A DNA stretch of 64,000 bases from a virus. Position 1 is the first letter of the stretch, and each line of letters begins with the position of its first letter. Positions 67 to 61,990 of this stretch are shown in pieces. The DNA lies in the IMG/VR virus record IMGVR_UViG_3300005617_000581. The stretch is one strand, 5' to 3'. The position numbers were made by a program, and so were the translations under genes. The notes below the pieces were generated by a model, which saw nothing but the letters and a program-made list of their open reading frames with translations, was not told the DNA's origin and ran no database searches.

Positions 67-516
67 CTAGACTGTATCACCAGCGCCGCAGTAACGCGTA
101 CTGCAGGTCACGGCTGGATCGTCTAGGGCGCGGTGACACCAAGGACACTTGGACGAGACGCCGTCGTAGCCGTCGGCCTGGCGCTTAGCGTTGAGACGAC
201 CCTTCGTCTCGTATCGGGCAAATACCTCGCGCGCGAGCTCGACCGGATCGTCGCCGAGCGCCAGCAGCATGTTGATCCAAAAGTGCAGCACGTCGACCAG
301 CTCGCCGACGTACGCGTCGCGCTCGATGTGCCGCGACGTTGCCCACGACTTCCAGCCAACCTCGTCGAGCGCCTCACACAGTTCCATGATCGCGGCCTGC
401 TGCATCTCGCGAATGTAGACGACGCGCTCGGCGGCGAGCATCCGCTGAAAGTTACGTCCGAACGACTCGGTCTGTAGGTCGTGCTGGAGTCGGAACAGTT
501 CCTCAAACCTATCCAT
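67..516 (-). CDS. MazG-like all-alpha nucleoside triphosphate pyrophosphohydrolase (possible dCTP/dUTP-clearing enzyme) with C-terminal Cys-rich tail
   Basis: The ELCEALDEVGWKSW and EL(a)DVLHF helices match the MazG/dimeric-dUTPase EExxE and WKxW pattern. There is a C-terminal CPWC...CSTRYC segment. It is translationally coupled to the upstream gene by an ATGA overlap. Confidence 0.5.
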   Translation of the reverse strand: MDRFEELFRLQHDLQTESFGRNFQRMLAAERVVYIREMQQAAIMELCEALDEVGWKSWATSRHIERDAYVGELVDVLHFWINMLLALGDDPVELAREVFARYETKGRLNAKRQADGYDGVSSKCPWCHRALDDPAVTCSTRYCGAGDTV

Positions 517-1208
517 CAGCGTTGCGCCTCATTCTTAATGATCTCGGCGATTGCCTCGGGCGTTCCGAGGTCGCGCGAACTTACCAACACGGTTCGGTTT
601 CGACCGCCGTGCATGAACTGGGCGAGGTACGGTCCGATCGGCAGCTCGTGACCCGGCTCGACGAAGTGAATCATGCGGTTGAGCACCGAGTAGATGTTGT
701 CGATGCTGCCGACGAACGGCCCGACCCAGCACGGAACGAACAGCTCTTCGGTGTGCGGTAGTACCTTCTCGCGCCAGACGTTGTCGTCGTCGAGGAACGT
801 GTACCGCTGGGCGTCCTCGACGTTCAACATGCGGACGCCGATCGCGCCGTTGTGCACGACCCGCCGGACGTCCTCGTCGGTCGACAGGTTGTCGCCGAGC
901 AGCACCAGCACCCGATCGTCATCGGCGCGACAGGACGTTACGCCGTACAACAGCGCGTGTCCGGGTCCGCGCGGAGACGGCTGCAGGACGAAGAAGACCT
1001 CGTCGACGTCCTCTACCTCGCGCACGATGTCGATCGAATTCTCGGGCGCGACGACGACGACGATCCGCTCGGCGCGCGCCTCGCGCGCGAGCAGCACCGC
1101 ACGGCGTACCAGCGAGACGCCGTCAATCTTAAGCAGTGGCTTACCATACGGACCGGTGATCGACTCGATACGCCGGCCGCGACCTGCGGCGAGAACTACC
1201 GCATCCAT
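516..1208 (-). CDS. Nucleotidyltransferase (sugar-phosphate / MobA-GlmU-like NTP-transferase fold)
   Basis: The N-terminus VVLAAGRGRR...GKPLL is the classic G-rich NTP-transferase signature. Length is 230 aa. Confidence 0.55.
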   Translation of the reverse strand: MDAVVLAAGRGRRIESITGPYGKPLLKIDGVSLVRRAVLLAREARAERIVVVVAPENSIDIVREVEDVDEVFFVLQPSPRGPGHALLYGVTSCRADDDRVLVLLGDNLSTDEDVRRVVHNGAIGVRMLNVEDAQRYTFLDDDNVWREKVLPHTEELFVPCWVGPFVGSIDNIYSVLNRMIHFVEPGHELPIGPYLAQFMHGGRNRTVLVSSRDLGTPEAIAEIIKNEAQR

Positions 1209-3469: not shown

Positions 3470-4024
3470 CTAGCCGACCGGCGTCGTGAACGGGTCGTCC
3501 GGCGCTGGAACCGACGGCTGACGTCCGAGCTCGGCCGCGACCGCGGGCGGCGTAGAAGGCGACGACGGGCCGGCTGCGGCGGGCACGACGAATCCGCCGA
3601 GCTGCCCGCCGGAGCCTCCGCCGGGACCTCCGAGGGCCTTCTTGTACTCCTTGATGTTCTCCCGCATGGTGCCGTTCCACTCGCGCGGTTCGACGACGGC
3701 GACGGCCCGGCGGCCCAGCAGCGCCTGCGCAATGACGTCCAGCGGGGCGTTCGAGTTGCGCTGGAAGAAGCCGCTGTCCAGGCCGAAGATCGCCATCTGG
3801 CCGAAGAAGATCCGCATCGCGTTGCCGTTCTCGGCCGAGATGACGAACTGGTCGAACAGCGTCTGTCCCGCCTTCGGACCGGACTCGACGCGGTGCTTAA
3901 CCTTGATCATGGGTTTGTCGTTGGACGACTTCGTGGCGACGGATTCGACGACCACGACGGTGAACTCACCCTCGAGGATCGTTGTGGCGTCCTTGTGGAG
4001 GCTCGCCCAGTTGATGGTCGACAA
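3470..4024 (-). CDS. DUF669-like phage single-strand DNA-binding protein candidate with Gly/Pro-rich C-terminal tail
   Basis: 184 aa lying directly downstream of the Sak4-like ATPase, which is a conserved phage pairing. It has a low-complexity GGPGGGSGGQLGG tail. Confidence 0.4.
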   Translation of the reverse strand: MSTINWASLHKDATTILEGEFTVVVVESVATKSSNDKPMIKVKHRVESGPKAGQTLFDQFVISAENGNAMRIFFGQMAIFGLDSGFFQRNSNAPLDVIAQALLGRRAVAVVEPREWNGTMRENIKEYKKALGGPGGGSGGQLGGFVVPAAAGPSSPSTPPAVAAELGRQPSVPAPDDPFTTPVG

Positions 4025-4034
4025 CGCGTACTCC

Positions 4035-4802
4035 TTACCGGTTGGGATAGATCGCGGCCAGCATGTCCGCGATGTTCGGTTCCTGGATGATGTCGGGAAG
4101 CCGCCCCTGAACGCGCTCGCCGACGACGTACGCCGGGTTGATACCGGCGCCGATCAACAGCTTCTTGTGCTTGACGTTTCCCTCCGAGCCCGCCTCGACC
4201 TCGGTGTAGAGGACGCCGCAGATGTCGACCCAGTACGGAAGCGTGTCGCGGATGCCGCCCTGCATGAACGGCCGCCACTGGCCGTTGTGCATCGCCGTCT
4301 CGCAGTTGAAGACGACGCACCGGATCGTGTTCGGCTGGAGCGTCAGGTCGCGGAAGCCGCGGATCAAGCCGTCCATCTGGTCGAGCAGCTGTCCCCAGCG
4401 CTGCTGGTCCATCAGCGCCGAACCGGTCCGGATGTTGGCCTTGCACCGGCGCTGGATCTCGGTGATCGAGTCGAGCACGATCGAGACGAAGTCGTTGTCG
4501 TACTGGGTCAGCGCCTGAAAGACCGCGACCATCGTCTGCCACGAGTCGACGTGTACGCGCGCGACGTCCCACGTGCCGTCGTAGCGTGGGATCGGCTCGG
4601 TGACCGGGTTCCACGTGATCTTTCGGAGCGGCTTCGTGCCGCGGTAGCCGATGTGATCTATGAACTTCCAGCTACCCTCCGCGTCGATGACGAGGATCGG
4701 TGCCGGCGCGGTCGACGACAGCGTCGACTTACCCTCCTTGGACGCCGAGTGGATCAACATCGAGACGACGTGATCCTTATCGATGACGCGCTCGTACGTC
4801 AC
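4035..4802 (-). CDS. RecA-like NTPase (AAA_24 / Sak4-like recombination ATPase)
   Basis: Walker A is SASKEGKST, followed by a RecA-like core. Position between the SSB-like gene and the Cas4-like nuclease fits this call. Confidence 0.55.
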   Translation of the reverse strand: MTYERVIDKDHVVSMLIHSASKEGKSTLSSTAPAPILVIDAEGSWKFIDHIGYRGTKPLRKITWNPVTEPIPRYDGTWDVARVHVDSWQTMVAVFQALTQYDNDFVSIVLDSITEIQRRCKANIRTGSALMDQQRWGQLLDQMDGLIRGFRDLTLQPNTIRCVVFNCETAMHNGQWRPFMQGGIRDTLPYWVDICGVLYTEVEAGSEGNVKHKKLLIGAGINPAYVVGERVQGRLPDIIQEPNIADMLAAIYPNR

Positions 4803-5785
4803 TCAACCTCCCTCTCGATTCGATCCCCGTAGTAGTCCAGGGGATCGTGCCTTACGTACATGTCCTGGATCGCGTCCTCGACGCGTGAGCCGTCGTCGAA
4901 CATGCGGCAGATCTTAAAGAAGTCACACTTCCACACACAGTCGCGCGACGGGCGCGACGGCACGACGTCCTGCGACGGCTGGCCGGGACCCGTGGATAGG
5001 AACAGCGACGCCTGGACGATCTGGCCGATCGTCCGGTCGAGCTGGCGCCGGTAATTGGCAACCTCGTGTTGGTTGTGGTCGATCGCGACGCGCCCGTAGA
5101 ACGGGGGCCGCGCCTTGTCGGTTCGCTTCACCTTGCGCAGCATGTTGTACAGCGCGCCGGTCGCGCGCTCGAGCGGATCGCCCGGCTGCATCCAGTCGAT
5201 CAGGTGGTAGTGCAGCATCTGCTGGTTGATGCCGAGCGTCGCGTCCGTCAGCGACTGGACGCTCTTATGGTCGATGAAGCCGCGGCGTCCAGCTTCTGGG
5301 TAGAAGATCTTAGCGTCGAGCTTGCCGATGTAGCGAACCTGCGCGCCGTACATCTTAAGCAGCGGCGACTCGACGTAGGTCTCGGCCGCGACTACCTCGA
5401 ACGCCTGGTCGGCGCCCGTCTCCTCGATCCAGTCGAGGTACCCCTCGATCATCGCGCGCTCGAGGTCGAACACCGAGTGGAGCTTAAGTACCTCCTGCGA
5501 CCACCTGAAGTGGTCCTCGTCGTCCCGCGGTTCGTCCAGTCCGGTCTGGATCGCGTCCCGCTGCTGCGCGACGCGCAGCGCCGTCAGCGCGCCGGTCGTC
5601 TGCGCGGGATCGTAGTGCGACGCCAGCGCAACGTGAATCCGCGTACCGGTCGAGCGCGCGTCGGACGTCGTCGTCGCGCGCGGCTTAAGTGCTCTATGCC
5701 AGCCCAGCCACCACCTACGCGGGCAGTCCTTGAACGTCTGGACCTCGGAGTTCGACGCGAGAAATACACCGTCGACGAACGTCAC
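4799..5785 (-). CDS. Cas4/RecB-family PD-(D/E)xK exonuclease with Fe-S cysteine cluster
   Basis: There is an N-terminal CPRRWW, an IDHK (D-x-K) motif, and a C-terminal CVWKCDFFKIC triad, giving the four-Cys Cas4-type arrangement. Confidence 0.6.
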   Translation of the reverse strand: MTFVDGVFLASNSEVQTFKDCPRRWWLGWHRALKPRATTTSDARSTGTRIHVALASHYDPAQTTGALTALRVAQQRDAIQTGLDEPRDDEDHFRWSQEVLKLHSVFDLERAMIEGYLDWIEETGADQAFEVVAAETYVESPLLKMYGAQVRYIGKLDAKIFYPEAGRRGFIDHKSVQSLTDATLGINQQMLHYHLIDWMQPGDPLERATGALYNMLRKVKRTDKARPPFYGRVAIDHNQHEVANYRRQLDRTIGQIVQASLFLSTGPGQPSQDVVPSRPSRDCVWKCDFFKICRMFDDGSRVEDAIQDMYVRHDPLDYYGDRIEREVE

Positions 5786-7662
5786 TTCACATCTCCTAGG
5801 TTGCTATCCATGATTCGCTGTTCCTCGTCGTCGAGCTCGTGCGTCGACAGTCCCGCCGCGGCGAGCCGCGCGCGGTCGCGGGTAATCTCCTCGAGGCGCA
5901 TCGCCTTCTCCCACAGGCGACCGACCTGCGTCTCCTCGACCGTGCCCCGCGCCACGAGGTCCATGACCTGGATCGACTCGTGAACCTCGGATCCGATGCG
6001 GTGTACCCGGTCCTCGGCCTGGACGTTGTCGACCATTGACCACGAACGTTGCATGAACACTATCAGGTCTGCGGCCGTCATCGTCAGTCCCGTACCACCC
6101 GCCTTCAGGGTAAACAGCAGCACCGACAGCTGTCCCGACTGAAAGCTGTTCAGGATCGCGTTGCGTTCGTACGTCGACTGACCGCCGGTGATTAGGCCGT
6201 GGTGAACGTGCAGCTTCTCGAGGCGCGCGGCCGCGAGTTCGACCAGCTGGCGGTGCTCCGCGGCCGCGACGAACGGCCGCCCGGCGCGTTCCTCGACGAT
6301 CTCGACGAGCGCGTCGACCTTCGGCGACGGGTCGCACATGCGGTAGCCGTCGGGTGTCGAGTGCATGGAGGCGCTGGAGAACTGTAGTAGCCGGATCTGC
6401 GCCACGAGGTCGTCCTTGGCAACCATCAGGGAGCCGTCCTCGAGGCGCGTCACCAGCGACTCCTCGATCTCGCGGTAGGCCTTGAACTGCTTCGGCGTCA
6501 GCTCGACGTGGCGCGTCGTCCGGACCTTGGGCGGCAGCTGCGGCAGTACGATCTTCTTGAGCATCCGGCGAAACCTCGGATCGAGGATCTGATAGAACTC
6601 GTCCTTGTGCTCCGGGTTGACGCCCTTAACCTCGAGTCCGCCGTATGTTCCCCACGCGAGTAGGCAGTAGCGGTCGACGAACGCGGACCTACGCGGGTAC
6701 TCGACCGGGTCGACGAAGTGCCCGATCGACCACAGCTCGGACGGGTCGTTGGCGATCGGCGTCCCGGTCAGCGCGAGCCGCCGCGTCACGGTTTTACCGT
6801 GGCCGACGGCCCAGCACGCGCGCGTCTGCTTCGCGTGGGGATCCTTGATCCGGTGCGCCTCGTCGACGACGACCGTCCTAAACGCGATGTCGTTGAGCTG
6901 GCGCGGGTGCACCTCGCAGCGCGCCGCGGTGACGCGCGGATCCTGTCCCCCGCAGTCCGGACACGACGCGAGTCGGATCGAGCCGAACGGCGCGAGCCGC
7001 GAGTGGCCACGTACCGCCTCGATGTTGATGATCACCAGCGCGGAGTCGTCCTGCGCGGCCTCCTTGAGTATCTTCGCGCGCTCGGCGGCCGAGCCGTTGA
7101 TGACGTACGACCGGGCCCACGGGAACCACTTCCACGCCTCGTCGCGCCAGTTGAACTTCGTCGAGTTGGGGCAGATCACCAGCGCGGGAAGCGCGTCCTC
7201 GAGTTCGTTGAGCAGCGTCAGTACCTGGATCGTCTTACCCGTGCCCATCTCGTCGGCGAGCAGCGCCGAACCGGCGACGTGCAGCCAGTCGACGCCGACG
7301 CGCTGGAACGGGTAGAGCCTTCCGACGTCGCGGTCCGTCTGGCTGAGCTCGCGCAGCAGCAGCGACGGCTCAACGCGATCGCGCCGGTGCGCGACGATCA
7401 ACGCGCGCAGTCCGTCGCCGTACGTAATCGTCGGAAACATGTAGCGCAGCTGGACGCACGACGCCCAGGACGGCGACAGCGTCCACGCCTTGGTGGTCGA
7501 GTTCCAGCGCGCGCCGGGAATGCGCTTAATCTGCTCCTTCTCGTTCCACAGCGTCTGGACGACGATCCGGTCTTCGACGAGCTCGGCGTGGGGCACCGGG
7601 TGAACCTCTCGTTCTCTAGATTCCGACGATGCTGGCGAACGTCTCGGGAAACAGCGAGGCAA
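5782..7662 (-). CDS. SNF2-family DNA helicase/translocase with inserted zinc finger
   Basis: Motif I is LADEMGTGKT, motif II is DEAHRIKD, and there is an inserted CPDCGG...CEVH zinc finger. The C-terminal helicase domain has QSTYERN. Confidence 0.7.
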   Translation of the reverse strand: MPRCFPRRSPASSESREREVHPVPHAELVEDRIVVQTLWNEKEQIKRIPGARWNSTTKAWTLSPSWASCVQLRYMFPTITYGDGLRALIVAHRRDRVEPSLLLRELSQTDRDVGRLYPFQRVGVDWLHVAGSALLADEMGTGKTIQVLTLLNELEDALPALVICPNSTKFNWRDEAWKWFPWARSYVINGSAAERAKILKEAAQDDSALVIINIEAVRGHSRLAPFGSIRLASCPDCGGQDPRVTAARCEVHPRQLNDIAFRTVVVDEAHRIKDPHAKQTRACWAVGHGKTVTRRLALTGTPIANDPSELWSIGHFVDPVEYPRRSAFVDRYCLLAWGTYGGLEVKGVNPEHKDEFYQILDPRFRRMLKKIVLPQLPPKVRTTRHVELTPKQFKAYREIEESLVTRLEDGSLMVAKDDLVAQIRLLQFSSASMHSTPDGYRMCDPSPKVDALVEIVEERAGRPFVAAAEHRQLVELAAARLEKLHVHHGLITGGQSTYERNAILNSFQSGQLSVLLFTLKAGGTGLTMTAADLIVFMQRSWSMVDNVQAEDRVHRIGSEVHESIQVMDLVARGTVEETQVGRLWEKAMRLEEITRDRARLAAAGLSTHELDDEEQRIMDSNLGDVK

Positions 7663-8080
7663 GCGCGAGCAGCACGTGGCGCTGCGCGGCGTTCGCGTGC
7701 TGGTCGCGGGACGCGACGTACCAGCCCAGGTCGCGCAGCCGTTGATTAGACGCGATCCTTACCGCGGGACCCGGGTTCTGGTGCACCAGCTGCGCGCCGA
7801 GTTCGTTCGCGATCGCGTCGACCTGGCCGAGTACCTCCAGCGCGTGAGGCTGACGCGTCTTACGCGATCCCTGGACGAACCTCTCGATCGCGAAACACGT
7901 CGGACCCTGGGGTGTCGAACGCGGCGGCCAGTGGTGGTCGTCGAGCATGCGCCGGATCATCGTCCCGACGGACGACGCCTGGACCTCGGAGGTTTCCGGT
8001 CGGACGCAGTCGTCGCACCAGAGCGCGAGGCCGGTGACCTTGCCCGGATCGACGCCGAAGATAATCACTCGTCGACCCAC
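7616..8080 (-). CDS. RuvC-like Holliday junction resolvase
   Basis: The N-terminus IFGVDPGKVTGLALW matches the RuvC GIDPG-TG motif. Length is 154 aa. Confidence 0.65.
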   Translation of the reverse strand: MGRRVIIFGVDPGKVTGLALWCDDCVRPETSEVQASSVGTMIRRMLDDHHWPPRSTPQGPTCFAIERFVQGSRKTRQPHALEVLGQVDAIANELGAQLVHQNPGPAVRIASNQRLRDLGWYVASRDQHANAAQRHVLLALASLFPETFASIVGI

Positions 8081-9840
8081 TCCTTCTTGTCGCCCCAGCG
8101 TTCGCCGTACGAGACCGACGCGGTGATCGGCACCTCAAACTGCTGGTCGTCGTTCATCACCTGGCGCAGCGCGTGGACGGCGTCGGGAACGTCCTCGTTC
8201 GGTACCTCGAGGAAGATTTCGTCGTGGACCGGCGCGACCATGTAGTCGCCGAGTCCCGCGTCGGCGAGCTCGATCTGCTTACGCTTGAACAGCGCCGCGG
8301 CCCAGCCCTGGATCAGGTAGTTCACGAGCGCGTACTCCTTGCCGGGATCGGCCGGGTGCCGCCGGTCCGTCAGCGGGCAGACCGCGTAGGCGACTCCCTC
8401 CTCGTCGCGCCGTCGGACCGAGTCGCTAAAGACCTGCTGCGCGAACTTCTCGATGCCCGGGTATGCCGCGTTGAGTCCGTCGTTGACGTAGCGCATCTGG
8501 TCGTATGAGACGCCGGCCGTCGCGGCCTGGCGCGCGACACCCGCGCCGTAGATCTTCGCGTACATGGCGTTCTTCGTCGGCTGGCGCCGCGGGTCGGACT
8601 TGACCAGCGACGGATCGGAGAAGATGTTGCGCGCCACGGTGACGAAGAAGTCCTCAGGCGCCCGAAACGCGGCGACGAGTCCAGGATCCCGCGACATGAT
8701 CGCGAGGCCGCGCATCTCGATCTGGTCGAAGTCCGCCATCAGCAGCGTGTGGCCGGGCCGGGCGCGCACGCAGTTGCGGACGACCGTCGCCGCCGGGTTG
8801 TGCTCGTTTTTACGTGGTAGGTTCTGCAGGTTCGGGTGGTCCATCGAGCAGCGGCCGGTCCGCGTTCCGAGCGTGTTGATCGACGGGTGAACGCAGCCGT
8901 CGGACTGCGTGTGTTCCAGGTAGAACTTGAGGTACGTCGACGCCATCTTCTGGTACTGGCGCCGCCGTAGGACGGCCTGCGCGAGAGGGTGGTCGATTCC
9001 GTCGAGGACGCCCTTGTCCAGCGAGACGGCGCCGGACTTGGTGGCCTTGGAAAACTGGAAGCCCGCGTCCGCGAGGACGCGGATCACCTCGGCGTTGGAC
9101 CCGGGCTTGATGCCGTACTCGGCGGCGCACCAGCGCTCGACGCGCTCGGCGTAGTCGTTGAACAGCCCGTAGTTGTCGCGTACGTAGTCGACGTCGATCG
9201 GCGCGCCGTGCGCCTCCATCCGCTGCGCGACCCACTGGTACTCGTTCTCGAGTTCGTACGCGCGCGGCGCCTGGTCGAGCACCTTCGGTAGGTGGATGTC
9301 GCTGAGCCGCCGCGTCAGCACCGTGTCGAGCGCGCCGTAGAACCAGTACCCGGGATAGTCGGACGGTATCGTCGCCCACGTCCAGCCGTTCTCGGACATG
9401 GCGCGCTCGAGGACGCCCTGCGACGCGCGCGCCCGCGGGTCGACGTGCCGCGCGGCCTGGTTCTTGAGGGCGCGGGACTGCGTCGGTTCGAGGACGTGCG
9501 CCATGACGCCGACGTCACGAATCCGCGACCGGTCGACGCGGACCCCGGCCTGGTCGAGGAACGACCAGTCGAACTTAGCATTCATCATGTCGACCGGCCC
9601 GACGTGCTCGGCGACGGCTCCGGCGAACAACCCGGACCAGCGTCGCCAGGGCAGCGCCCAGCCGTCGTCGGCGTCGCCGATCTGGACGAGGCGGACGTAG
9701 TCGCCCGAGTGCCAGTAGAAGCCGGTCGTCTCGGTGTCGATCCCCAGCGGCTCGCCACGGCGCGCGCCGATCCACTCGGCGAACGCGCGGACGTCGTCGA
9801 GCGACTCGACGAGGTGCATCCGCGTGTCGTCCAGCGTCAC
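8065..9840 (-). CDS. polA: DNA polymerase I (family A) with 3'-5' exonuclease domain
   Basis: Exo I motif is LGIDTETTG. Pol motif A is DFDQIEMRGLA, motif B is RRQPTKNAMYAKIYGAG, and motif C is VHDEIFLEV. Confidence 0.85.
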   Translation of the reverse strand: MTLDDTRMHLVESLDDVRAFAEWIGARRGEPLGIDTETTGFYWHSGDYVRLVQIGDADDGWALPWRRWSGLFAGAVAEHVGPVDMMNAKFDWSFLDQAGVRVDRSRIRDVGVMAHVLEPTQSRALKNQAARHVDPRARASQGVLERAMSENGWTWATIPSDYPGYWFYGALDTVLTRRLSDIHLPKVLDQAPRAYELENEYQWVAQRMEAHGAPIDVDYVRDNYGLFNDYAERVERWCAAEYGIKPGSNAEVIRVLADAGFQFSKATKSGAVSLDKGVLDGIDHPLAQAVLRRRQYQKMASTYLKFYLEHTQSDGCVHPSINTLGTRTGRCSMDHPNLQNLPRKNEHNPAATVVRNCVRARPGHTLLMADFDQIEMRGLAIMSRDPGLVAAFRAPEDFFVTVARNIFSDPSLVKSDPRRQPTKNAMYAKIYGAGVARQAATAGVSYDQMRYVNDGLNAAYPGIEKFAQQVFSDSVRRRDEEGVAYAVCPLTDRRHPADPGKEYALVNYLIQGWAAALFKRKQIELADAGLGDYMVAPVHDEIFLEVPNEDVPDAVHALRQVMNDDQQFEVPITASVSYGERWGDKKEWVDE

Positions 9841-10343
9841 CGGTTGCTCCTGTCGAGGAATATGTCGGTGGACAGATCCTTATTGACGACGACGACGAGC
9901 CCGCAGTCGCGCATGAACCGGTACGAGTCGTCGCTGCGCCGGTGTTCGTGTTCCCGCTGCGAGTCCACGACGACGAACTGAAGGCCGGAGTTGGCGATGA
10001 GTTTAGCACAGGGCGTGCAGACGTGACTCGTGACGTAGAGCGTTCCACCCATGCGCAGCGTGCGGTCGCTCATGGTGATCGCGTTAGCCTCGGCGTGAAG
10101 CGCCGGGCAGTCCGAATAGTCGTTCGCCACCGGTTCGCCGTGGTTGCGACCGCGGGTGCACCAGTTGCCACAGCGCGCGTCCGCGTGGTCGAAGCCGCGT
10201 GGCGGTCCGTTGTATCCCTCGCCGATGACCTTACCTTCGACGTCGGTGATCAGCGCGCCGACCTGGTCGCGTTCGCATAGGCTGCGCTTCCCAAGGTCGC
10301 GCGCCATGGCGATGCGTACCTGGTGCCACGACGGTCGGGTCAC
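9837..10343 (-). CDS. dCMP deaminase
   Basis: Zinc-ligand motifs CPALHAEANAI (HAE) and CTPCAKLI (PCxxC) are both present. Confidence 0.8.
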   Translation of the reverse strand: MTRPSWHQVRIAMARDLGKRSLCERDQVGALITDVEGKVIGEGYNGPPRGFDHADARCGNWCTRGRNHGEPVANDYSDCPALHAEANAITMSDRTLRMGGTLYVTSHVCTPCAKLIANSGLQFVVVDSQREHEHRRSDDSYRFMRDCGLVVVVNKDLSTDIFLDRSNR

Positions 10344-11191
10344 TTCGCGACCACCAGCTCGGCGAACGTGTCCAGGTACCAGCGTTCGCTGTCCGTGGGC
10401 AGCGCGACGCTGCCGTTGCGGATCGCGCGGGCGCGCTGGCGGACGTCGTCGAAGTTGTCGCCGCCGTTGCCGATCCCGAAGTCGGGATAGCGTTCCTCGG
10501 TCGCGAGTCCCACCCGGTCAGTGACCTGGTACGACAGGTTGACGTGCTCGTGGTAGAGGTGCATCGACCACGCGGTGTGTGTGTACGTCCCGGGAAGGAC
10601 GCCGAGAACGTTGGCCAGCGTCAGCTGCAGCTGCGTGAACTGGAACATGTCGTACGGCAGGCCCAGCCACGCGTCGTTGGAGCGCATGGTGACGCGCATG
10701 TTCAGCGAGTCGTGGCGCGGACCGAGGCTGAAGCCGAGCGCGACGGTGCACGGGTAGTCGGCCTTGTTGCGGTAGTGGTTGTCCAGGTGGGAATCCCACA
10801 GCGTCACGACCGCTTGGCGACTCCACCAGTCGTCGCGCAGCTTGTCGACGACGAAGCCGAGCTGGTCGGCGACGCGCTCGCCGTAGGCGCCCCAGAAGTG
10901 GCCGTTGGGTTCGAGAAACTTCTTGAAGCTCGGGGCGATCCCGACCAGCCAGTCGGGATCGGAAAACCCGCCGATCAGCTGGATCGCCTCGGCGGCCGCG
11001 ATGCGCGCGTTGAGTCCCCGGCCGCAGCCGGTCGGCAGCGCGAACAGCGGCGACTCGACGTGGATCGTGTAGTCGTCCAGGTTGTACGTCAGTCCGTTGC
11101 GGGACGGGCGGCGCTGGCCGCGGCGGCGGAGGTCCTCGAGGACCTGGGGGTAGACGTCGCGACAGTAGCGACCGTCGATGAGTCGGGCCAC
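10340..11191 (-). CDS. Thymidylate synthase homologue (ThyA fold), possibly a pyrimidine hydroxymethylase/methylase with altered base specificity
   Basis: The catalytic Cys context YPCTVALGF is present. The RSNDAWLGLPYDMFQF block aligns to ThyA R(S)xD..LGxPFN, but carries Asp (PYD) where ThyA has the uracil-specifying Asn. Confidence 0.7.
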   Translation of the reverse strand: MARLIDGRYCRDVYPQVLEDLRRRGQRRPSRNGLTYNLDDYTIHVESPLFALPTGCGRGLNARIAAAEAIQLIGGFSDPDWLVGIAPSFKKFLEPNGHFWGAYGERVADQLGFVVDKLRDDWWSRQAVVTLWDSHLDNHYRNKADYPCTVALGFSLGPRHDSLNMRVTMRSNDAWLGLPYDMFQFTQLQLTLANVLGVLPGTYTHTAWSMHLYHEHVNLSYQVTDRVGLATEERYPDFGIGNGGDNFDDVRQRARAIRNGSVALPTDSERWYLDTFAELVVAK

Positions 11192-12159
11192 GTTCCTAGG
11201 TCCTCCTGCTTAGTAAGCGCGAGCGCGATCAGGTTACCGTACTCGCCGCGCTTAAGATGATGAAAGCGCCGGACGTACTGCGGGTGAGGTACGACGCCGT
11301 GGGGCACCGCGAGCTGCGCGAGTCGTCGCTGCGCGTTGCGGCCGAGCGCGACGGTACGCGGGCGTCCGAGCGAATCCCACAGCCGGCGCGGATCGTCGAC
11401 GTCGCACGCGTTGGCGAGCCCGTAGCGGATCGTCGTTCCCGCGTCGGCGAGCGCGCCGCGCAGGAAGTGTCCCGACGTACCCGGGAACGGCAGGAACGCC
11501 GGATCCGTGTTGGCGCGCGCCTCACGGGACGACGGGTCGACGTGGCGCAGCTCGTGGCGGACGTCGCCGAACAGCAGGAACTCTGGGTGCCGAGGTCCCG
11601 AGTACGTCGTCGTCACCAGGTCGACGACCGTGGACTCGCGGACGTGCGCCAACTTGACGACGCGTTCGACCTCCGAGTTCAGCGGCGACGACCACTGGTA
11701 GAACTGCTGCAGCTGGAACGAGCGCAGCCGCACGTCGCGGTAGGCCCTGTCGACCAGCGGCAGCTCGTCGAGCAGCGCGTCGACGTCCTCGCCGCGCTCG
11801 GCGTAGACGCGCCGGTACGTCGCCAGGTCGCCGTAGACGTAGACCACGAGGGCGCCGAGCCGGGCGAGCAGGGACTCGATGGCCCACCACGCGGCGTCGT
11901 CCAGCTGCGAGACGCGACCGCGCAGGGCGGGATAGACGCGCTCCCCCCAGTGCCAGCGGTCGAGGATTAGGTGCGGCGACCTGCCGGGTCGATACCCCGA
12001 GATCGGCCGGAGGTACTCGTCCAGTGGGTGGCCGACCGGGGGTCCCTTGTGCATCCGGACGACGCCGCGCGCGTGGTCGCGTTCGTCGAGAAATTCTTCC
12101 AGTGCCTCGGCGAGCGTCGTCTTACCGCCGCCGTCCGGGCCCTCTAGGATTATGAGCAC
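11089..12159 (-). CDS. Thymidylate-kinase-like P-loop kinase fused to a divergent uracil-DNA-glycosylase-superfamily domain
   Basis: The N-terminus LIILEGPDGGGKTTLAEAL is the dTMP-kinase signature. C-terminal LPFPGTSGHFL and HPQYVRRF resemble UDG family-4 motifs (PFVGxAGxLL, HPSxxxR). There is an approx 100-nt overlap with the downstream ThyA-like gene through a low-complexity tail. Confidence 0.5.
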   Translation of the reverse strand: MLIILEGPDGGGKTTLAEALEEFLDERDHARGVVRMHKGPPVGHPLDEYLRPISGYRPGRSPHLILDRWHWGERVYPALRGRVSQLDDAAWWAIESLLARLGALVVYVYGDLATYRRVYAERGEDVDALLDELPLVDRAYRDVRLRSFQLQQFYQWSSPLNSEVERVVKLAHVRESTVVDLVTTTYSGPRHPEFLLFGDVRHELRHVDPSSREARANTDPAFLPFPGTSGHFLRGALADAGTTIRYGLANACDVDDPRRLWDSLGRPRTVALGRNAQRRLAQLAVPHGVVPHPQYVRRFHHLKRGEYGNLIALALTKQEDLGTWPDSSTVATVATSTPRSSRTSAAAASAARPATD

Positions 12160-12683
12160 CGGTGCCTCATCGCCGGGTGGAGTACCTCGTCGTCGCCGCG
12201 CGCGAGCTCGACGAGCCGCTCGAGCCAGCCGACCCAGTAGATGGACTCGGTGGGTCGCCCGGGTAGTTCACCCTCCGGCGACGGCTCGCTGGTAAGCGCG
12301 TGGTCGCGCGCCGCGCGCAGCCGGTACGTCCGATGGAGGTAGCCGGTCTGCTCGGCCGTCGAGCGCTCGCGGCCGAACCAGTACGACTGGACCTGGTGCC
12401 GCCCGCGGTAGCGCGAACGGCGCCCCCAGTTGCGCGCTGCGCCCGCGACGTCGGCGAGTCCTAGGGCTAGCCACGACGTCGCGTCGCGGGTCGTAGCGAC
12501 GGCGCGACGCGCGCCTGCGGCGATCCGGCGCCGGACCTCGGGAAGCTCGGCGACGAGCTGACGCGTCGGCGTCGGCTGCGCGTAGATCGGGACGTCGTCG
12601 ATAGAAACGAGGAGGTCGCCGTCCCCGGTGGACTCGGGGACGGCGACCTCGGATTGGATTGGCAGTGCTGCGACTGTGGTCAC
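12150..12683 (-). CDS. Hypothetical protein
   Basis: 177-aa ORF in the leftward operon with a 10-nt overlap with the downstream gene. No recognisable motif. Confidence 0.45.
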   Translation of the reverse strand: MTTVAALPIQSEVAVPESTGDGDLLVSIDDVPIYAQPTPTRQLVAELPEVRRRIAAGARRAVATTRDATSWLALGLADVAGAARNWGRRSRYRGRHQVQSYWFGRERSTAEQTGYLHRTYRLRAARDHALTSEPSPEGELPGRPTESIYWVGWLERLVELARGDDEVLHPAMRHRCS

Positions 12684-14420: not shown

Positions 14421-14894
14421 TTAGACCACCGCCCGGTTGACGTACGCGTCCCGGATGTCCGCGTCGAACTGGGACGCGACGGCCAGGGCGCGCGCGTGCT
14501 GCGGCGGCATGAACGTCTCGCCCGGCCGGTCCCCACCTGGGGGACGCCGAACGGTCAGGAACTCGACGACCTCGTACGCCGATTGGGTCTCGAGGACCTT
14601 CTCGAGCGTTACCTCGCCGGGCGCGCGCGACCGGCCGACCCGGACGACGACGTAGTCGTCGCGACTCGGCTCCACGTGGTGACGCCGGTAGATCGCCAGT
14701 TCGATCCAGCGGCACGCCGAGCACGTCGTGCCGCGCGGTACGACGCCGTCGGCGTCGTGCGGCCTCGCGTTGTGTCCTATCTTTTGACTGGAGGCGACGG
14801 CGAGGACGCGGCCGTCGAACTCGTAGCTTCGACCGTCGGCCGTGAACGTGATCCGGTGCAGTTCGCCGACGGCGAACCTAGGCATGGTAGTCAA
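14421..14894 (-). CDS. Hypothetical protein (first gene of leftward operon)
   Basis: 157-aa ORF whose start abuts the divergent control region. Confidence 0.45.
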   Translation of the reverse strand: MTTMPRFAVGELHRITFTADGRSYEFDGRVLAVASSQKIGHNARPHDADGVVPRGTTCSACRWIELAIYRRHHVEPSRDDYVVVRVGRSRAPGEVTLEKVLETQSAYEVVEFLTVRRPPGGDRPGETFMPPQHARALAVASQFDADIRDAYVNRAVV

Positions 14895-15071
14895 GTCAAT
14901 TCTCCTCTCATCTCCTTGTTGGTCTTCGGTTTCGGGTCGGTCCCCGCGGATAAAATCAGCATATGTTTTAGCCCCGAAACGCGCCCCCGGGATCGTCTCT
15001 GGCGAGTTCGATCCCGGGGGCGACGCGGTCCCTGGGGAGGACCGTGGAGCCCCGAAGGAGGCGCCCAGCTG
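14895..15071. promoter_or_regulatory. Divergent intergenic control region between leftward and rightward operons, carrying a 13-bp inverted repeat and an AT-rich near-palindrome
   Basis: CGCCCCCGGGATC at 14982-14994 pairs with GATCCCGGGGGCG at 15010-15022 across a 15-nt spacer. TAAAATCAGCATATGTTTTA lies at 14951-14970. The RBS GAAGGAGG precedes GTG at 15072. Confidence 0.4.
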
Positions 15072-17522
15072 GTGACTACACTACCACAAGCCCCGCTAGA
15101 ACCCCGCGACCAGGGGGAACGTATACTCGCGGCCGCGCGGGAGCACGCCGCGGCCGGAGTTCGGATCTTTCCGGTCCACGGACTGCGGCGCGTCGTTGCG
15201 CCCGAAACCGGGGGACTCGACGTCCGCACGGAGCTACGGTGCGGCTGCGGCGACGCCGCGTGCCCCAACCCCGGTAAGCACCCCGTCGGGCTGCTCGTCC
15301 CGAACGGGCACAACGGCGCGACGACCGAGCCGGGCACGATCGACCGGTGGTTTAGGCTGCCGTCGGCCCGCGACGCCAACGGCTGGATCCCGTACAACAT
15401 CGGCGTCGCGACCGGGCGCGGACTGGTCGTCGTCGACGCCGACGTCAAGCAGGCGCGACCCGACCTGCCGACGGGACTGGACGTACTGGACGACTGGGAG
15501 ACGTGGACCCAGGGGACGACGCTTCCCGACACGCTGACGATCCGCACCGGCGGCGGCGGCCGCCACCTGTGGCTGCGCGTCGATCGGAACGTCCGCGTCG
15601 CGGCGCGCAACCGGGTACTGCCCGGGATCGACCTGAAGGGCGACGGCGGCTACGTCCTGGCGACGCCGTCGCTGCACGTTTCGGGCCGCTACTACGAGGT
15701 AGCGCGCGACCTGGAGGCCGCCGAGGCGTCCGTCGAGCTGGTCGCGTGGCTGCTAACGGTCCGCGGCGGCCGCTACGTCACCAAGCGCGCGGGCGACGCC
15801 GCGGGCGTCGTCCCGGACGAGTACGACTTTAGGGCGATCGTCGGCGGCGTCCGCGGCTGCGCGGCCGGGCATCGGGACTACTTCGTCAACGACCTGTGCT
15901 TCAGGCTGCGGCGCGCCGGCTCGACGGTCGAGGAGGCCGCCCGGGCCCTCAGGCGCGAGTGGCTGCGCATGGAGCAGCCCGCGGGCGACGAGTTTCCGTG
16001 GGAGTCCTGCCTGTACAAGCTGCGCCGCGTCTGGGACGAGGTCACGCCGCAGGAGGTCGTCGACATACCGGCGTGGCGACCGCCGTCGGCCGCGTCGGCG
16101 ACGTCCGGCGCCGTCGAGCCCGAGGACGACGACGGACTCGGCGGGCTGTCGGCCGCCGAGGCGCTGGTCCGGCCGGAGCTGACGTTCCTGCTGACGGACA
16201 CCGGCAACGGGATCCGGTTCGCCCAGCGGATGCGCGAGGTCGTCCGCTACTGCCCGGGCGAAAATAGGTGGTACACCTGGGACGGACTCCGGTGGCGGCT
16301 GGACGCCAAGCGCGAGTCCTTCCTCCTAACGGAGGAGGTCGTCAAGGACCTGTACGTCGAGGCCTCGCGGCTGCCCGAGCACGAGCGCGACCGGGTCGAG
16401 CGCTGGGCGATCACCAGCCAGTCCGTCGCCCGCCGCGAGGCGATGCTGTCCGCCGCGGGGGCGCAGCCCGGGATCGCGATCGAACCGGACGACATGGATC
16501 GGGACCCGTGGCTGCTGGTCGTCCGCAACGGGACGCTGGACCTGCGGACCGGCGCGCTGCGCGCGTCGGACCCGCGGGACCTATGCACGCGGCTCGCCGA
16601 GGTCGACTTCGACGCCGGGTCGCGGGCGCCGCTGTGGCTGAAGCACGTCGAGTTCGTCACCGACGGCGACGACGTGCTCGCCGAGTGGCTGCGCAGGGCC
16701 GTCGGCTACACGCTGACGGGACTGACGGACGAGCAGAAGCTGTTCTTCCTGTGGGGCAACGGCGCCAACGGCAAGTCCACGTTCGTCGACGTCGTCGCCT
16801 CGATGCTCGGCTCGTACGCCGCGCAGGCGGACGCGGGACTGCTGGTCGGCGAGCGCGAGCACCCGACGCAGCTCGCCGGGCTGCGCGGGGCGCGGCTCGT
16901 CGTCGCGGACGAGACCGAGGCCGGGCGCAGGCTCGCCGAGCGCCGGATCAAGGCCCTGACCGGCGGCAAGAAGGTCCGGGCGCGCTACATGCGCCAGGAC
17001 TACTTCGAGTTCACGCCCCGCTTTAAGATCTGGATCACGGGCAACCACAAGCCGGAGGTCGCCGGTACGGACGGCGGGATCTGGCGCCGCCTCAAGCTCG
17101 TCCCGTTCCGCGCGACGCTGGACGACGACCGCCGGATCCTAGGATACGACGAGGTGCTCCACCAGGAGCTGCCGGGCATACTGAACTGGGCCTTAGACGG
17201 ACTCGCCGCCTGGCGGACGATCGGCGGACTCGGCGAGCCCGAGGTCGTCGGCGAGGCGACGCGCGAGTACCGGTCGGAGGAGGACACGATCGGGCTGTGG
17301 CTGTCGGAGCGCGCGGACCTGGGGGTACGGGACGCCGCCGCGGCGAACGCGCAGCTGTACGAGTCCTACCGCTGGTGGTGCCACGCCAACGGGATCCAGG
17401 ACGTCCGGTCGAACGTCGCGCTCGGCCGGGAGCTCGCCGCGCGCGGACTCAGGCGGGAGATCGTCAAGCTGGACGGCAAGACCACCCGCGTCTGGTACGG
17501 CGTCGCGCTGCGCGAGCAGTAG
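15072..17522 (+). CDS. Bifunctional DNA primase-polymerase / D5-type helicase (prim-pol N-terminus, P4-type primase C-terminal NTPase)
   Basis: The N-terminus GVRIFPVHG...HPVGLLVPNGH is prim-pol-like. The C-terminus has Walker A GNGANGKSTF and Walker B LVVADE. Start is placed at in-frame GTG 15072 with the GAAGGAGG RBS. The ORF track opens at 14496, but that stretch overlaps the divergent minus-strand gene. Confidence 0.8.
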   Translation: MTTLPQAPLEPRDQGERILAAAREHAAAGVRIFPVHGLRRVVAPETGGLDVRTELRCGCGDAACPNPGKHPVGLLVPNGHNGATTEPGTIDRWFRLPSARDANGWIPYNIGVATGRGLVVVDADVKQARPDLPTGLDVLDDWETWTQGTTLPDTLTIRTGGGGRHLWLRVDRNVRVAARNRVLPGIDLKGDGGYVLATPSLHVSGRYYEVARDLEAAEASVELVAWLLTVRGGRYVTKRAGDAAGVVPDEYDFRAIVGGVRGCAAGHRDYFVNDLCFRLRRAGSTVEEAARALRREWLRMEQPAGDEFPWESCLYKLRRVWDEVTPQEVVDIPAWRPPSAASATSGAVEPEDDDGLGGLSAAEALVRPELTFLLTDTGNGIRFAQRMREVVRYCPGENRWYTWDGLRWRLDAKRESFLLTEEVVKDLYVEASRLPEHERDRVERWAITSQSVARREAMLSAAGAQPGIAIEPDDMDRDPWLLVVRNGTLDLRTGALRASDPRDLCTRLAEVDFDAGSRAPLWLKHVEFVTDGDDVLAEWLRRAVGYTLTGLTDEQKLFFLWGNGANGKSTFVDVVASMLGSYAAQADAGLLVGEREHPTQLAGLRGARLVVADETEAGRRLAERRIKALTGGKKVRARYMRQDYFEFTPRFKIWITGNHKPEVAGTDGGIWRRLKLVPFRATLDDDRRILGYDEVLHQELPGILNWALDGLAAWRTIGGLGEPEVVGEATREYRSEEDTIGLWLSERADLGVRDAAAANAQLYESYRWWCHANGIQDVRSNVALGRELAARGLRREIVKLDGKTTRVWYGVALREQ

Positions 17523-31844: not shown

Positions 31845-31932
31845 GGTACACGAGGACCGCGAAATCTTCGCGGTCCTCGGCTACTTTGGCCGACAAAGTG
31901 ATATTATGAACAGGAAACGAGAGGAGAACGAG

Positions 31933-35669: not shown

Positions 35670-35670
35670 T

Positions 35671-61745: not shown

Positions 61746-61990
61746 AGATTCCCGAGGAACGTAAGGGTGACGGTCCGTGTCAAAACTGTGCACAGGAATA
61801 CTTCGACTGGTCAGCCGATAATGCGTTCTGGAATAATGTCATAGCGGAGTGGAAGGGTGTTGACTGGACCGGAGGGGATCCTGGAGCGATTCTCTGCATA
61901 ACCTGCTTTGGCGTCATCGCGCATAATCTAGGTTACGACATGATCGGCTTTCGTATGACGCCTGAGTGGCGTTGGCAGCGACGTCTATGA
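61739..61990 (+). CDS. Hypothetical small protein (83 aa), lower GC
   Basis: In-frame ATG 61739. CQNCAQEY...ILCITCFG. Confidence 0.35.
   Translation: MVEIPEERKGDGPCQNCAQEYFDWSADNAFWNNVIAEWKGVDWTGGDPGAILCITCFGVIAHNLGYDMIGFRMTPEWRWQRRL

Follow-up and report, generated by a model that had tools for sequence, protein, structure and literature searches.

The gene considered here lies in a 64,000-nt stretch of viral DNA (the window; IMG/VR record IMGVR_UViG_3300005617_000581), and its product appears to join a P-loop kinase to a domain resembling DNA glycosylases, directly upstream of a ThyA-like gene. What does such a protein do: does it serve ordinary thymidylate synthesis, act on bases within DNA, or take part in the replacement of a base? 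Our analysis supports a thymidylate kinase (TMK)-like nucleotide kinase fused to a divergent domain that is assigned, by modelling, to the UDG superfamily (Table 1). Since the fusion always precedes cytosine-modifying enzymes, it probably belongs to a DNA-disguise pathway and is not an ordinary thymidylate kinase. From a GC content of 65%, the host can be assigned no further than "Actinomycetota-like".

Table 1. Features of the fusion gene and its cassette (window coordinates; residue numbers refer to the fusion protein unless a gene is named)
Feature	Residues	Coordinates	Strand	Basis or remark
Whole fusion ORF		11089..12159	-	356 aa, GTG start
N-terminal P-loop nucleotide kinase domain, YorR/dTMP-kinase-like	1-160	11680..12159	-	Profile, Foldseek, PHROG
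Walker A/P-loop GPDGGGKT	7-14	12118..12141	-	G7, K13 invariant in 61 homologues
DRWHWGE	67-73	11941..11961	-	D67, R68, G72, E73 invariant
ERGED, LID-like "RGxD" segment	121-125	11785..11799	-	R122 nearly invariant; aligns with YorR "RVRGDE"
Linker helix between the domains	164-178	11626..11670	-	DSSP helix in model; A171 invariant
C-terminal divergent UDG-superfamily domain (predicted)	~185-326	11182..11607	-	Basic; no Fe-S cysteines
Motif A equivalent LLFGDVRH	195-202	11554..11577	-	Weak hhalign (E 0.086)
PAFLPFPGTSGHFL	220-233	11461..11502	-	Equivalent of family-4 GRPFVGKAGQLL by hhalign
NACDVD	250-255	11395..11412	-	Asn aligned to base-reading Asn80 of Tth UDGA (hhalign)
Motif B equivalent HPQYVRRF	292-299	11263..11286	-	H292, P293, Q294, R298, F299 61/61; R297 60/61
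C-terminal tail and stop, inside next gene	327-356	11089..11181	-	Low pLDDT, atypical codon-position GC
ThyA homologue, predicted dCMP C5-hydroxymethylase (or methylase)		10340..11191	-	MilA match, T4 gp42/ThyA alignment
Asp181 of ThyA homologue (GLPYDMF), at TS Asn177/T4 gp42 Asp179 position		10649..10651	-	Alignment
dCMP deaminase		9837..10343	-	PF00383 E 2.9e-14; PHROG_174 E 7e-33
Family A DNA polymerase (Pol A), fourth cassette gene		8065..9840	-	Conserved cassette
Sugar-1-phosphate nucleotidylyltransferase, same operon		516..1208	-	PF12804/PF00483; TIGR03992 E 1e-18
MazG/dimeric-dUTPase-type NTP pyrophosphohydrolase, candidate dCTPase/dUTPase, operon end		67..516	-	PF08761 E 1.1e-11; PHROG_18650 E 4e-31

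The kinase domain can be placed by both profile and fold. Residues 2-167 match YorR in a profile search of the PDB (2axp/3kb2; E 1.8e-14), and Foldseek also returns YorR, at a TM-score of 0.74-0.76 (normalised to YorR), followed by PPK2 and by TMKs, many of them at E values of about 1e-4 to 1e-5; there is in addition a match to PHROG_761 (E 3e-11). The TMK-type motifs (P-loop, DR-x and an Arg-containing LID) are all present within a TMK-like fold, and by alignment with YorR and TMKs we read DRWHWGE as the putative counterpart of "DR(Y/H/F)", the TMK acceptor-phosphate motif. The TMK family models themselves score low: Pfam PF02223 gives 19.8 bits (cut-off 27) over residues 5-51 only, and TIGR00041 gives 22.6, which does not reach its curated cut-off of 83.25. 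A search of the 64-kb window for P-loop kinases found, beside the fusion, only a primase-helicase and a Zeta-toxin-like protein; the window thus holds no second candidate for a modified-dCMP kinase.

The C-terminal domain is, according to its predicted structure, a previously unrecognised and highly divergent member of the UDG fold. Foldseek with the full-length model gave kinase matches only, and therefore the C-terminal domain was modelled on its own; the separate model has a UDG-superfamily fold of minimal size (~140 aa), of which 118-122 residues can be superposed on UDGs that are 190-220 aa long. Detection from sequence failed or was marginal. Searching every PDB sequence with a family profile of the domain brought up no UDG; the Pfam UDG model PF03167 gave 12.3-14.9 bits (gathering score 24.3) and reached E<=1 in only 6 of 43 members (best 2.3e-4); and hhalign of the family profile with an alignment of four family-4/UdgX sequences gave a weak E of 0.086, which is consistent with the fold match. 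Consequently, the UDG assignment rests on predicted structure.

Conservation within the domain, counted in an alignment of 61 homologues, falls on positions that correspond to the working parts of family-4 enzymes. By the weak hhalign alignment, D199 stands where family 4 has the Glu of GE(A/G)PG, and the segment reads G(D/E)VR(H/N), with Gly and the acid retained and Pro-Gly replaced by Arg-His/Asn (G198 60/61, D/E199 61/61, R201 61/61); the distant AXL3 homologue has GEDFG here. In PAFLPFPGTSGHFL, residues A221, F222, S229, G230 and L233 are invariant and residue 225 is F or Y in 48 of the 61. The family-4 segment GRPFVGKAGQLL comprises a base-stacking aromatic and a backbone-contact loop. 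The base-reading Asn and the motif B His (HPxxxxR) of family 4 are both kept (N250 and H292, each 61/61), and the Asn is followed by two invariant Asp residues (D253 and D255, each 61/61). HPQYVRRF lies outside the segment aligned by hhalign and, in our reading, occupies the position in the fold of family-4 HPAYLLR. Ligands for a 4Fe-4S cluster are lacking, in that a single Cys column (C252) reaches 50% conservation and the N-terminal CxxC region is absent. A loop at residues 203-219 is variable and is modelled at pLDDT 76-79.

Much of this architecture had been proposed in a sequence-only reading of the window, and the pairing that it suggested, a dTMP-kinase-like P-loop kinase with a UDG-superfamily domain, is supported, the kinase by profile and Foldseek and the UDG-like domain by the predicted model. 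The dTMP-kinase signature that it saw holds for motifs and fold, although the scores fall under the curated TMK cut-offs. The kinase is of another lineage than T4 dNMP kinase (gp1), with no gp1-type match among its family matches. HPQYVRRF, which that reading likened to a family-4 motif, is conserved, and a UDG fold for the C-terminal region, which the model predicts, is approached only weakly by profile comparison with family 4/UdgX.

The fusion is not peculiar to this virus. It defines a large viral family of 1636 clusters at 50% identity, with 246 IMG/VR loci; 267 full-length homologues have 306-371 aa. Across the family the joining of kinase to UDG-like domain is nearly invariable, and the C-terminal domain is conserved to the same degree as the kinase. 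Stenotrophomonas phage AXL3 encodes a distant member (27% identity). A scan of a genome collection found the fusion in three MAG contigs only, and our literature search, in which subscription journals were thinly covered, found no kinase-UDG fusion. The AF2 model of the whole protein has a pLDDT of 91.4 and a pTM of 0.87. Family and PDB searches with the upstream ORF (12150-12683) gave no match.

At its 3' end the fusion gene overlaps the ThyA-like gene. The overlap of about 100 nt reported from the sequence alone is real, measures 103 nt and recurs in relatives; it looks to be incidental. A frameshift or sequencing error in 11089-11191, for which a check had been proposed, is rejected because contigs independent of this one show the same overlap, the start of the ThyA-like gene has an AGGAGG and lines up with those of its homologues, and the core of the fusion ends at a conserved Trp324. 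The tail beyond this core is probably incidental read-through. It is modelled at pLDDT 51-60, is missing or short in most relatives, and has a codon-position GC of 0.50/0.90/0.80, unlike coding sequence here, whereas these bases, read in the frame of the ThyA-like gene, give 0.82/0.50/0.88.

An indication of function comes from the neighbouring genes. The ThyA homologue lies directly downstream of the fusion in 85 of 85 loci, and the order fusion, ThyA homologue, dCMP deaminase, Pol A is found in 83 of them. Its best PDB match is the CMP 5-hydroxymethylase MilA (E 4e-13), and the copy in the window keeps the catalytic Cys (C148) together with D181. An Asp occupies the TS Asn177 position at all 85 loci; among controls, E. 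coli ThyA and the M6 dUMP hydroxymethylase have Asn at this position and T4 gp42 has Asp. From this alignment the ThyA homologue is predicted to be cytosine-specific and not a thymidylate synthase, and the Asp, as against the Asn of the 5-hmU phage M6, therefore suggests that the pathway concerns 5-modified cytosine and not 5-hmU. Further along the operon, the MazG-type gene is homologous to the MazG-like gene in the same position in Actinomycetia phage DSL-LC01, and the sugar-1-phosphate nucleotidylyltransferase could possibly supply a donor for base glycosylation; glycosyltransferase-type genes in the window could instead serve glycosylation of the virion. Two operon proteins (1196-2074 and 2071-3429) have no family or PDB match, and searches of the window found no ThyX, no DSL-LC01 glycosyltransferase and no UDP-galactopyranose mutase. 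From the gene content of the cassette we infer a T4-type replacement of C by 5-hydroxymethylcytosine, possibly glycosylated, with 5-methylcytosine as an alternative.

The reading that we tentatively prefer, at somewhat less than an even chance, is that the fusion combines a 5-hm-dCMP kinase, in the role of T4 gp1, with an active glycosylase-type UDG module, both within such a cytosine-replacement cassette. In this proposal, for which we suggest substrates, catalytic activities and a DNA modification, the pyrophosphatase and the deaminase would deplete dCTP and dCMP, and the ThyA homologue would convert dCMP to 5-hm-dCMP. If C is replaced by way of the nucleotide pool, some kinase has to phosphorylate the modified dCMP; thus, the N-terminal domain would convert free 5-hm-dCMP, and perhaps dTMP, to the diphosphate, filling the gp1 role from another kinase lineage. 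The UDG-like domain, which retains the motif A acid, the base-reading Asn and the motif B His, would be a base-flipping DNA glycosylase that is catalytically active on phage DNA during its replication. Its most likely targets would be uracil-type bases, either U that arrives via dUTP from the deaminase-plus-kinase route or 5-hmU; the one basis for a uracil-type substrate is the retained Asn. Micrococcus phage Kurnik and Gordonia phage GodonK have kinase-only homologues in the same gene position, adjoining dCMP-hydroxymethylase-type genes, and therefore the kinase can do without the flipping module.

An unlikely alternative is that the phage, in the conflict over cytosine replacement, has re-targeted the UDG-fold domain to a non-uracil substrate, the domain either excising ordinary or under-modified cytosine or flipping 5-hmC for the kinase. 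Against the preferred proposal, the fusion of a repair glycosylase to a nucleotide kinase has no forcing mechanistic reason. Moreover, the two invariant Asp residues, together with the example of Brig1, a UDG-fold enzyme that reads glucosyl-hmC by a Glu (PMC11078745), show that the UDG fold is able to read cytosine derivatives.

A rather improbable suggestion is that the domain is no glycosylase in vivo and serves as an anchor that ties nucleotide synthesis to DNA or the replisome, or as a shield of modified bases from Brig1-like host glycosylases. In T4 the enzymes of dNTP synthesis are found in association with the replisome, the domain is basic and minimal, and its gene shares a cassette with Pol A (83/85 loci). 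However, its invariant positions are the equivalents of catalytic and base-reading residues (D/E199, N250, H292), which would be unusual in a purely structural domain. The cytosine-excising form of a re-targeted domain, taken by itself, has a distinctly small chance of being correct: playing as a glycosylase the part that cytosine-specific nucleases have in T4, the domain would attack unmodified C or under-modified 5-hmC and destroy host or mis-synthesised C-DNA, while the kinase supplied the replacement. The invariant Asn, typical of uracil and thymine readers, argues against this, as do the kinase-only relatives that lack the domain.

We consider it very doubtful that the kinase acts within DNA, as the sequence-only reading had proposed for 5-hmU or another modified base. 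Here the UDG-like domain would flip 5-hmC or 5-hmU out of the duplex, and the fused kinase would phosphorylate the CH2OH in situ to create a leaving group for further substitution, in the manner of 5-HMUDK. The 5-HMUDK enzymes show that bases in DNA can be substrates of P-loop kinases (PMC8989533), and the present kinase shares one polypeptide with a base-flipping fold, almost invariably in the family, the arrangement of the two domains being modelled with confidence (pTM 0.87); the two unmatched operon proteins could be downstream transferases. Against this, the similarity to M6 gp54, the sole 5-HMUDK member compared, is confined to the P-loop (N-domain HMM 5.7 bits, Walker A only; no tblastn match), whereas homology to nucleotide kinases extends over the whole length. 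Together with the cytosine-type ThyA partner, this limited likeness leads us to reject membership in the 5-HMUDK family. The kinase-only homologues of Kurnik and GodonK, the lack of an aGPT-Pplase-type match among the operon genes scanned, and the need of a pool-based pathway for a modified-dCMP kinase, for which the window offers no other candidate, also disfavour action within DNA.

It is most improbable that free nucleotides are the target of the UDG-like domain. As an N-glycosidase or a binding site it would then sanitise or regulate the pool, in functional coupling with the kinase active site, for instance through destruction of dUMP, 5-hm-dUMP or dCMP. Its fusion partner is a nucleotide-pool enzyme, the domain is minimal, the loop at residues 203-219 could close over a small ligand, and DNPH1, of a different fold, is a precedent for 5-hm-dUMP sanitation. 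However, the UDG-superfamily enzymes known to us act on polynucleotides, the surface is basic, and a conserved RR follows motif B where other UDGs have a DNA-intercalating wedge. Finally, an ordinary thymidylate kinase within a dCMP-dUMP-dTMP-dTDP module, its C-terminal extension being insignificant, is hardly credible and is rejected: GenBank names the AXL3 (gp29) and DSL-LC01 homologues "thymidylate kinase", next to a "thymidylate synthase", and TMK profiles match weakly, but these scores lie far under the cut-offs, the C-terminal domain equals the kinase in conservation and has, in the model, the fold of a UDG, the uracil-reading position of the ThyA homologue is Asp and not Asn at every locus, AXL3 and L005 carry ThyX in addition, and AXL3 DNA is refractory to all enzymes with G/C in their site.

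Hundreds of phage genes that bear the names "thymidylate kinase" and "thymidylate synthase" probably make up a module for cytosine replacement, and many uncultured actinophage-like viruses, as well as the cultured AXL3 and DSL-LC01, would be flagged as carriers of non-canonical DNA, which bears on sequencing bias, restriction mapping and genome engineering for phage therapy. The UDG-like domain would represent a large branch of the UDG superfamily that escapes sequence searches, has an altered motif A and lacks the iron-sulfur cluster; enzymes of this fold with new specificities have turned out to serve as biological weapons (Brig1) and also as useful reagents. A glycosylase-type module wired to a nucleotide kinase also suggests that the supply of precursors and the surveillance of DNA are physically coupled at the fork. 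Were 5-hmC flipped for the fused kinase, the 5-hmU DNA kinase pathway would have its first counterpart for cytosine; were cytosine excised, only fully disguised DNA would be left.

Among known systems, YorR of the B. subtilis prophage SPbeta and the bacterial and viral TMKs have whole-length homology with the kinase domain and share its P-loop, DR-x and LID-like RG-x-D. Identity is ~20%, the stretch from P-loop to DR is shorter here than in TMK, and neither YorR, whose own function is putative, nor the TMKs carry a UDG-like domain. In the 5-HMUDK systems (M6 gp54, ViI gp67, SP10 gp186, phiW-14 gp37), as here, a P-loop kinase gene adjoins that of a ThyA-family hydroxymethylase in a phage hypermodification cluster (PMC8989533). 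However, that hydroxymethylase is uracil-specific with Asn, where the cassette partner has Asp, and the operon genes scanned here include no aGPT-Pplase, PLP or radical-SAM partners. Family 4 UDGs and UdgX (T. maritima TM0511, 1l9g; T. thermophilus UDGA, 1ui0; S. tokodaii, 4zby; M. smegmatis UdgX, 6ail) are 15-19% identical to the UDG-like domain and have ~190-200 aa and a 4Fe-4S cluster. Unlike these, the domain has an invariant Arg in motif A in place of the Pro-Gly, a variable insert of 15-25 residues after motif A, an invariant DxD after the Asn and HPQ(Y/F)xRRF as motif B, and is always C-terminal to a kinase.

SP-15-like phages (phiLo, 9qhs; YerA41) also have modified pyrimidines and a fused UDG domain. 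There, however, the partner is Pol A, the UDG is a recognisable type IV with demonstrated excision of dU, and thymidine is modified, in contrast to the cytosine-directed cassette described here. Brig1 is a host-encoded, stand-alone bacterial defence glycosylase that excises alpha-glucosyl-5hmC, whereas the UDG-like domain is phage-encoded and fused and retains Asn in place of the Brig1 Glu. A parallel in logic is the T4 hmC pathway (gp1, gp42, gp56, cd and the glucosyltransferases). We know of no T4 counterpart of the UDG-like domain, T4 gp1 belongs to another kinase lineage, and the ThyA homologue is nearer MilA than T4 gp42; the predicted logic and gene set are nevertheless the same, with an Asp-type dCMP hydroxymethylase, a dCMP deaminase, an NTP pyrophosphatase, a kinase and sugar-donor/transferase genes.

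The fusion gene encodes a kinase like thymidylate kinase (TMK), of the YorR type, joined to a C-terminal domain with the fold of the UDG superfamily. An AlphaFold2 model of the protein, built from a 61-sequence alignment, has a mean pLDDT of 91.4 and a pTM of 0.87, with poor prediction confined to the last ~30 residues. When a family profile of the kinase domain is compared with the PDB, SPbeta YorR is the best match (E 1.8e-14, residues 2-167) and many thymidylate kinases come next; Foldseek with the model also places YorR first, followed by TMKs and PPK2. Little or no variation is seen in the P-loop (K13), the DRWHWGE motif (D67, R68, E73) and an RG-x-D LID segment (R122). The domain falls far short of curated TMK models. 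Thus, the dTMP-kinase signature claimed in a sequence-only reading of this DNA stands for the TMK-like fold and the P-loop, but the domain is a YorR-type nucleotide kinase and not a bona fide TMK. The three strings quoted in that reading are all found in the protein (residues 1-15, 223-233 and 292-299).

The relationship of the C-terminal domain to UDGs is hardly detectable by sequence methods. In a Foldseek search of the PDB with a separate model of this domain, the best 25 matches are all UDG-superfamily proteins, confirming the proposed fold. Profile-profile alignment with family 4/UdgX is weak, yet co-linear with the fold: LLFGDVRH (D199) aligns with family 4 MIVGEGPG (Glu41), PAFLPFPGTSGHFL with GRPFVGKAGQLL, N250 with the base-reading Asn80, and VALGRNA with VPLGAVA, while the place of motif B is taken by HPQYVRRF. 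Consequently, the first catalytic motif, which the sequence-only reading took to be apparently lacking, seems to have an equivalent in altered form; among 61 homologues Gly198 is kept in 60, and residue 199 is always acidic (D in 53, E in 8). In the same set R201, N250, D253, D255, H292, P293, Q294, R298 and F299 are invariant, the cysteines needed for an Fe-S cluster are lacking, and the domain is basic (mean pI 8.7 versus 6.5 for the kinase domain). In Stenotrophomonas phage AXL3 the homologue, gp29 (7971-8954 of its locus), has GEDFG as motif A, between the canonical GE(A/G)PG and GDVRH; among the products of nearby genes are the MazG-like "hydrolase" gp30 and the methyltransferase gp31.

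In a word-indexed search the fusion protein had 267 relatives; the listed 120 range in length from 306 to 371 aa, with query coverage of 86-100%. An exhaustive profile search with the C-terminal domain alone gave 1636 cluster representatives with an E-value of 1e-3 or below, 694 of them at 1e-10 or below. Nearly all of the best 150 of the 1636 have lengths of 300-365 aa and carry the domain around residues 160-320; the few entries of 156-240 aa may be fragments or split genes. Three of 156-164 aa (P0132, P0219, P0243) consist of a linker helix and the UDG-like domain and nothing else, and are either split-gene forms of the fusion or fragments. There are 246 confirmed fusion loci in IMG/VR, and since a scan of one genome per prokaryotic species gave only three MAG contigs, the family is essentially viral. 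Among cultured phages it is carried by Actinomycetia phage DSL-LC01 and by AXL3, in both of which the gene is labelled simply "thymidylate kinase". Both folds are already known; what is new is a large, sequence-invisible UDG subfamily without an Fe-S cluster, G(D/E)VR(H/N)...N-x-x-D-x-D...HPQ(Y/F)xRRF, its obligatory fusion to a YorR-like kinase, and recognition of the "TMK + TS + dCMP deaminase" cassette as cytosine-directed. No description of a kinase-UDG fusion was found in the literature searched, coverage of which was incomplete.

The gene lies within a long minus-strand operon (12150-12683 through 67-516) of the window, which has a GC content of 65%; no close cultured relative of the window was found, matches being confined to short stretches of Pol A in phages of Microbacterium and Arthrobacter.

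Features of the fusion protein, its operon and other parts of the window
Feature	Coordinates	Strand	Remarks
Kinase domain	residues 1-160		N-terminal; profile and Foldseek
UDG-like domain	residues ~185-326		C-terminal; separate model, pLDDT 87
ORF without assigned family	12150-12683	-	177 aa; upstream of fusion gene
Fusion gene	11089-12159	-	356 aa; GTG start
ThyA homologue	10340-11191	-	operon member
dCMP deaminase	9837-10343	-	operon member
Pol A	8065-9840	-	operon member
RuvC-like	7616-8080	-	operon member
SNF2 helicase	5782-7662	-	operon member
PD-(D/E)XK nuclease	4799-5785	-	operon member
AAA_24 / RecA-like	4035-4802	-	operon member
SSB-like	3470-4024	-	operon member
Protein without detectable family	2071-3429	-	452 aa; between SSB-like and nucleotidylyltransferase genes
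Protein without detectable family	1196-2074	-	292 aa; between SSB-like and nucleotidylyltransferase genes
Sugar-1-phosphate nucleotidylyltransferase, GlmU-N/RmlA-like	516-1208	-	near end of replication operon
MazG/dUTPase-type (dimeric-dUTPase) NTP pyrophosphohydrolase	67-516	-	last gene of replication operon
Primase-helicase (Prim-Pol / D5_N / DUF5906)	14496-17522	+	1008 aa; divergent from cassette
SPFH/Band 7 domain protein	26775-27647	+	
NDP-sugar C-methyltransferase-like (Methyltransf_13/14)	58860-60065	+	far end of window
GT4-type glycosyltransferase	61966-63063	+	far end of window

The ORF upstream of the fusion gene overlaps its start by 10 nt, and its product has zero Pfam, PHROG, NCBIfam or PDB matches; ORFs of 96-236 aa occupy the equivalent position in three related loci (L003-L005), and the ORF may be part of the cassette. 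The primase-helicase is likewise divergent from the cassette in L004 and L005. The two sugar-related products at the far end could decorate DNA or virion proteins. A toxin-like cluster inside the structural region (31906-32982, 35542-37812, 37809-41870 and 41870-42859, all plus strand), comprising an ADP-ribosylglycohydrolase, a MuF-domain/ADP-ribosyltransferase exoenzyme fusion, a protein of 1353 aa and a P-loop kinase resembling Zeta toxin, possibly encodes capsid-delivered effectors.

The overlap of the fusion and ThyA-like genes had raised the suspicion of a frameshift at 11089-11191. No error was found: the ThyA-like start is GTG 11191 with AGGAGG nine bases upstream, alignment of its N-terminus with homologues begins at residue 1, and an overlap of 103 nt is also present in a contig 99% identical and in relatives that share 43% identity, ruling out a sequence error. 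In the 85 loci the overlap has a median of 13 nt and measures at least 60 nt in 13 of them. The kinase-UDG core stops at the nearly invariant Trp324; after it come 30 residues of low pLDDT whose codon-position GC profile is set by the ThyA frame, which speaks against a functional extension. The overlap is thus probably incidental read-through in GC-rich DNA, with probable translational coupling.

In all 85 loci of the context analysis (80 from IMG/VR and five others) the ThyA homologue directly follows the fusion gene on the same strand, and in 83 the dCMP deaminase and then Pol A come next. Every one of the 85 homologues keeps the catalytic Cys and has Asp in place of TS Asn177 and Thr in place of TS His147, a pattern identical to D179/C148/T149 of T4 gp42 dCMP hydroxymethylase (the E. 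coli ThyA and gp42 reference sequences were confirmed against the PDB). A control, the dUMP hydroxymethylase of phage M6, whose DNA contains 5-hmU, carries the expected Asn. The best solved relative of the window's homologue is the CMP 5-hydroxymethylase MilA (E 4e-13). ThyX, which would be redundant were the ThyA homologue a dTMP maker, is additionally encoded in the carrier L005 and, as gp50, in AXL3 (PMC7504290). Of 37 restriction enzymes, 35 failed to cut AXL3 DNA, and those that did cut recognize AATT and TTAA (PMC7504290), as would fit a G/C base being replaced throughout.

The kinase accompanies dCMP-hydroxymethylase-type enzymes with or without the UDG-like domain. In Micrococcus phage Kurnik (3995-5267 of its locus) the kinase-only homologue is 178 aa long (HMM E 1.8e-23), and the next gene downstream encodes a ThyA homologue with the active-site motif MRSNDAVYGFRNDYAWQ, matching MRSNDVVFGFRNDYAWQ of gp42; Gordonia phage GodonK (5043-6870) pairs a hydroxymethylase-type ThyA homologue with a 260-aa kinase homologue whose C-terminus is unrelated. 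These phages, whose annotations make no mention of 5-modified cytosine, are suggested to carry it as well. The sequence-only reading had suggested a kinase acting on a modified base within DNA, helped by base flipping; the fusion kinase shares with the 5-hmU DNA kinase M6 gp54 only Walker A. Given this limited likeness, the Kurnik and GodonK pairings, and the failure to find a second plausible nucleotide kinase in the window, the kinase probably has the role of T4 gp1, phosphorylating free 5-hm-dCMP (or 5-m-dCMP).

In the UDG-like domain precisely the catalytic and base-reading positions are conserved, and the domain is basic; both points suggest an enzyme that flips DNA bases and is functional. 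Retention of the base-reading Asn favors uracil-type bases as substrate; the cassette deaminase and TMK-like kinase would increase the levels of dUMP and dUTP. SP-15-like phages, whose pyrimidines are modified, carry on Pol A a UDG domain shown to be active, which removes dU in front of the fork (bioRxiv 10.1101/2025.03.26.645540). This preferred reading is tentative, since D253 and D255 beside the Asn are unaccounted for, the motif-A Arg is new, and in Brig1 a family-4-like UDG fold reads glucosyl-hmC via an acidic residue (PMC11078745). The domain could instead be a glycosylase for cytosine or under-modified bases, or it could flip bases to help the fused kinase act on 5-hmC in DNA. Other alternatives are a non-catalytic anchor or shield, set against the conserved catalytic positions, and a free-nucleotide N-glycosidase, set against the basic charge.

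The MazG-type pyrophosphohydrolase and sugar-1-phosphate nucleotidylyltransferase, together with the hydroxymethylase-type gene, suggest that the modification is glycosylated 5-hmC. The stretch of DSL-LC01 matching the operon end encodes MazG and, in place of the two window proteins without detectable family, a glycosyltransferase, a UDP-galactopyranose mutase and a hypothetical protein; those two window proteins are candidate base-modifying transferases. The cassette and operon thus have the same gene set as the T4 hmC pathway, drawn from different lineages.
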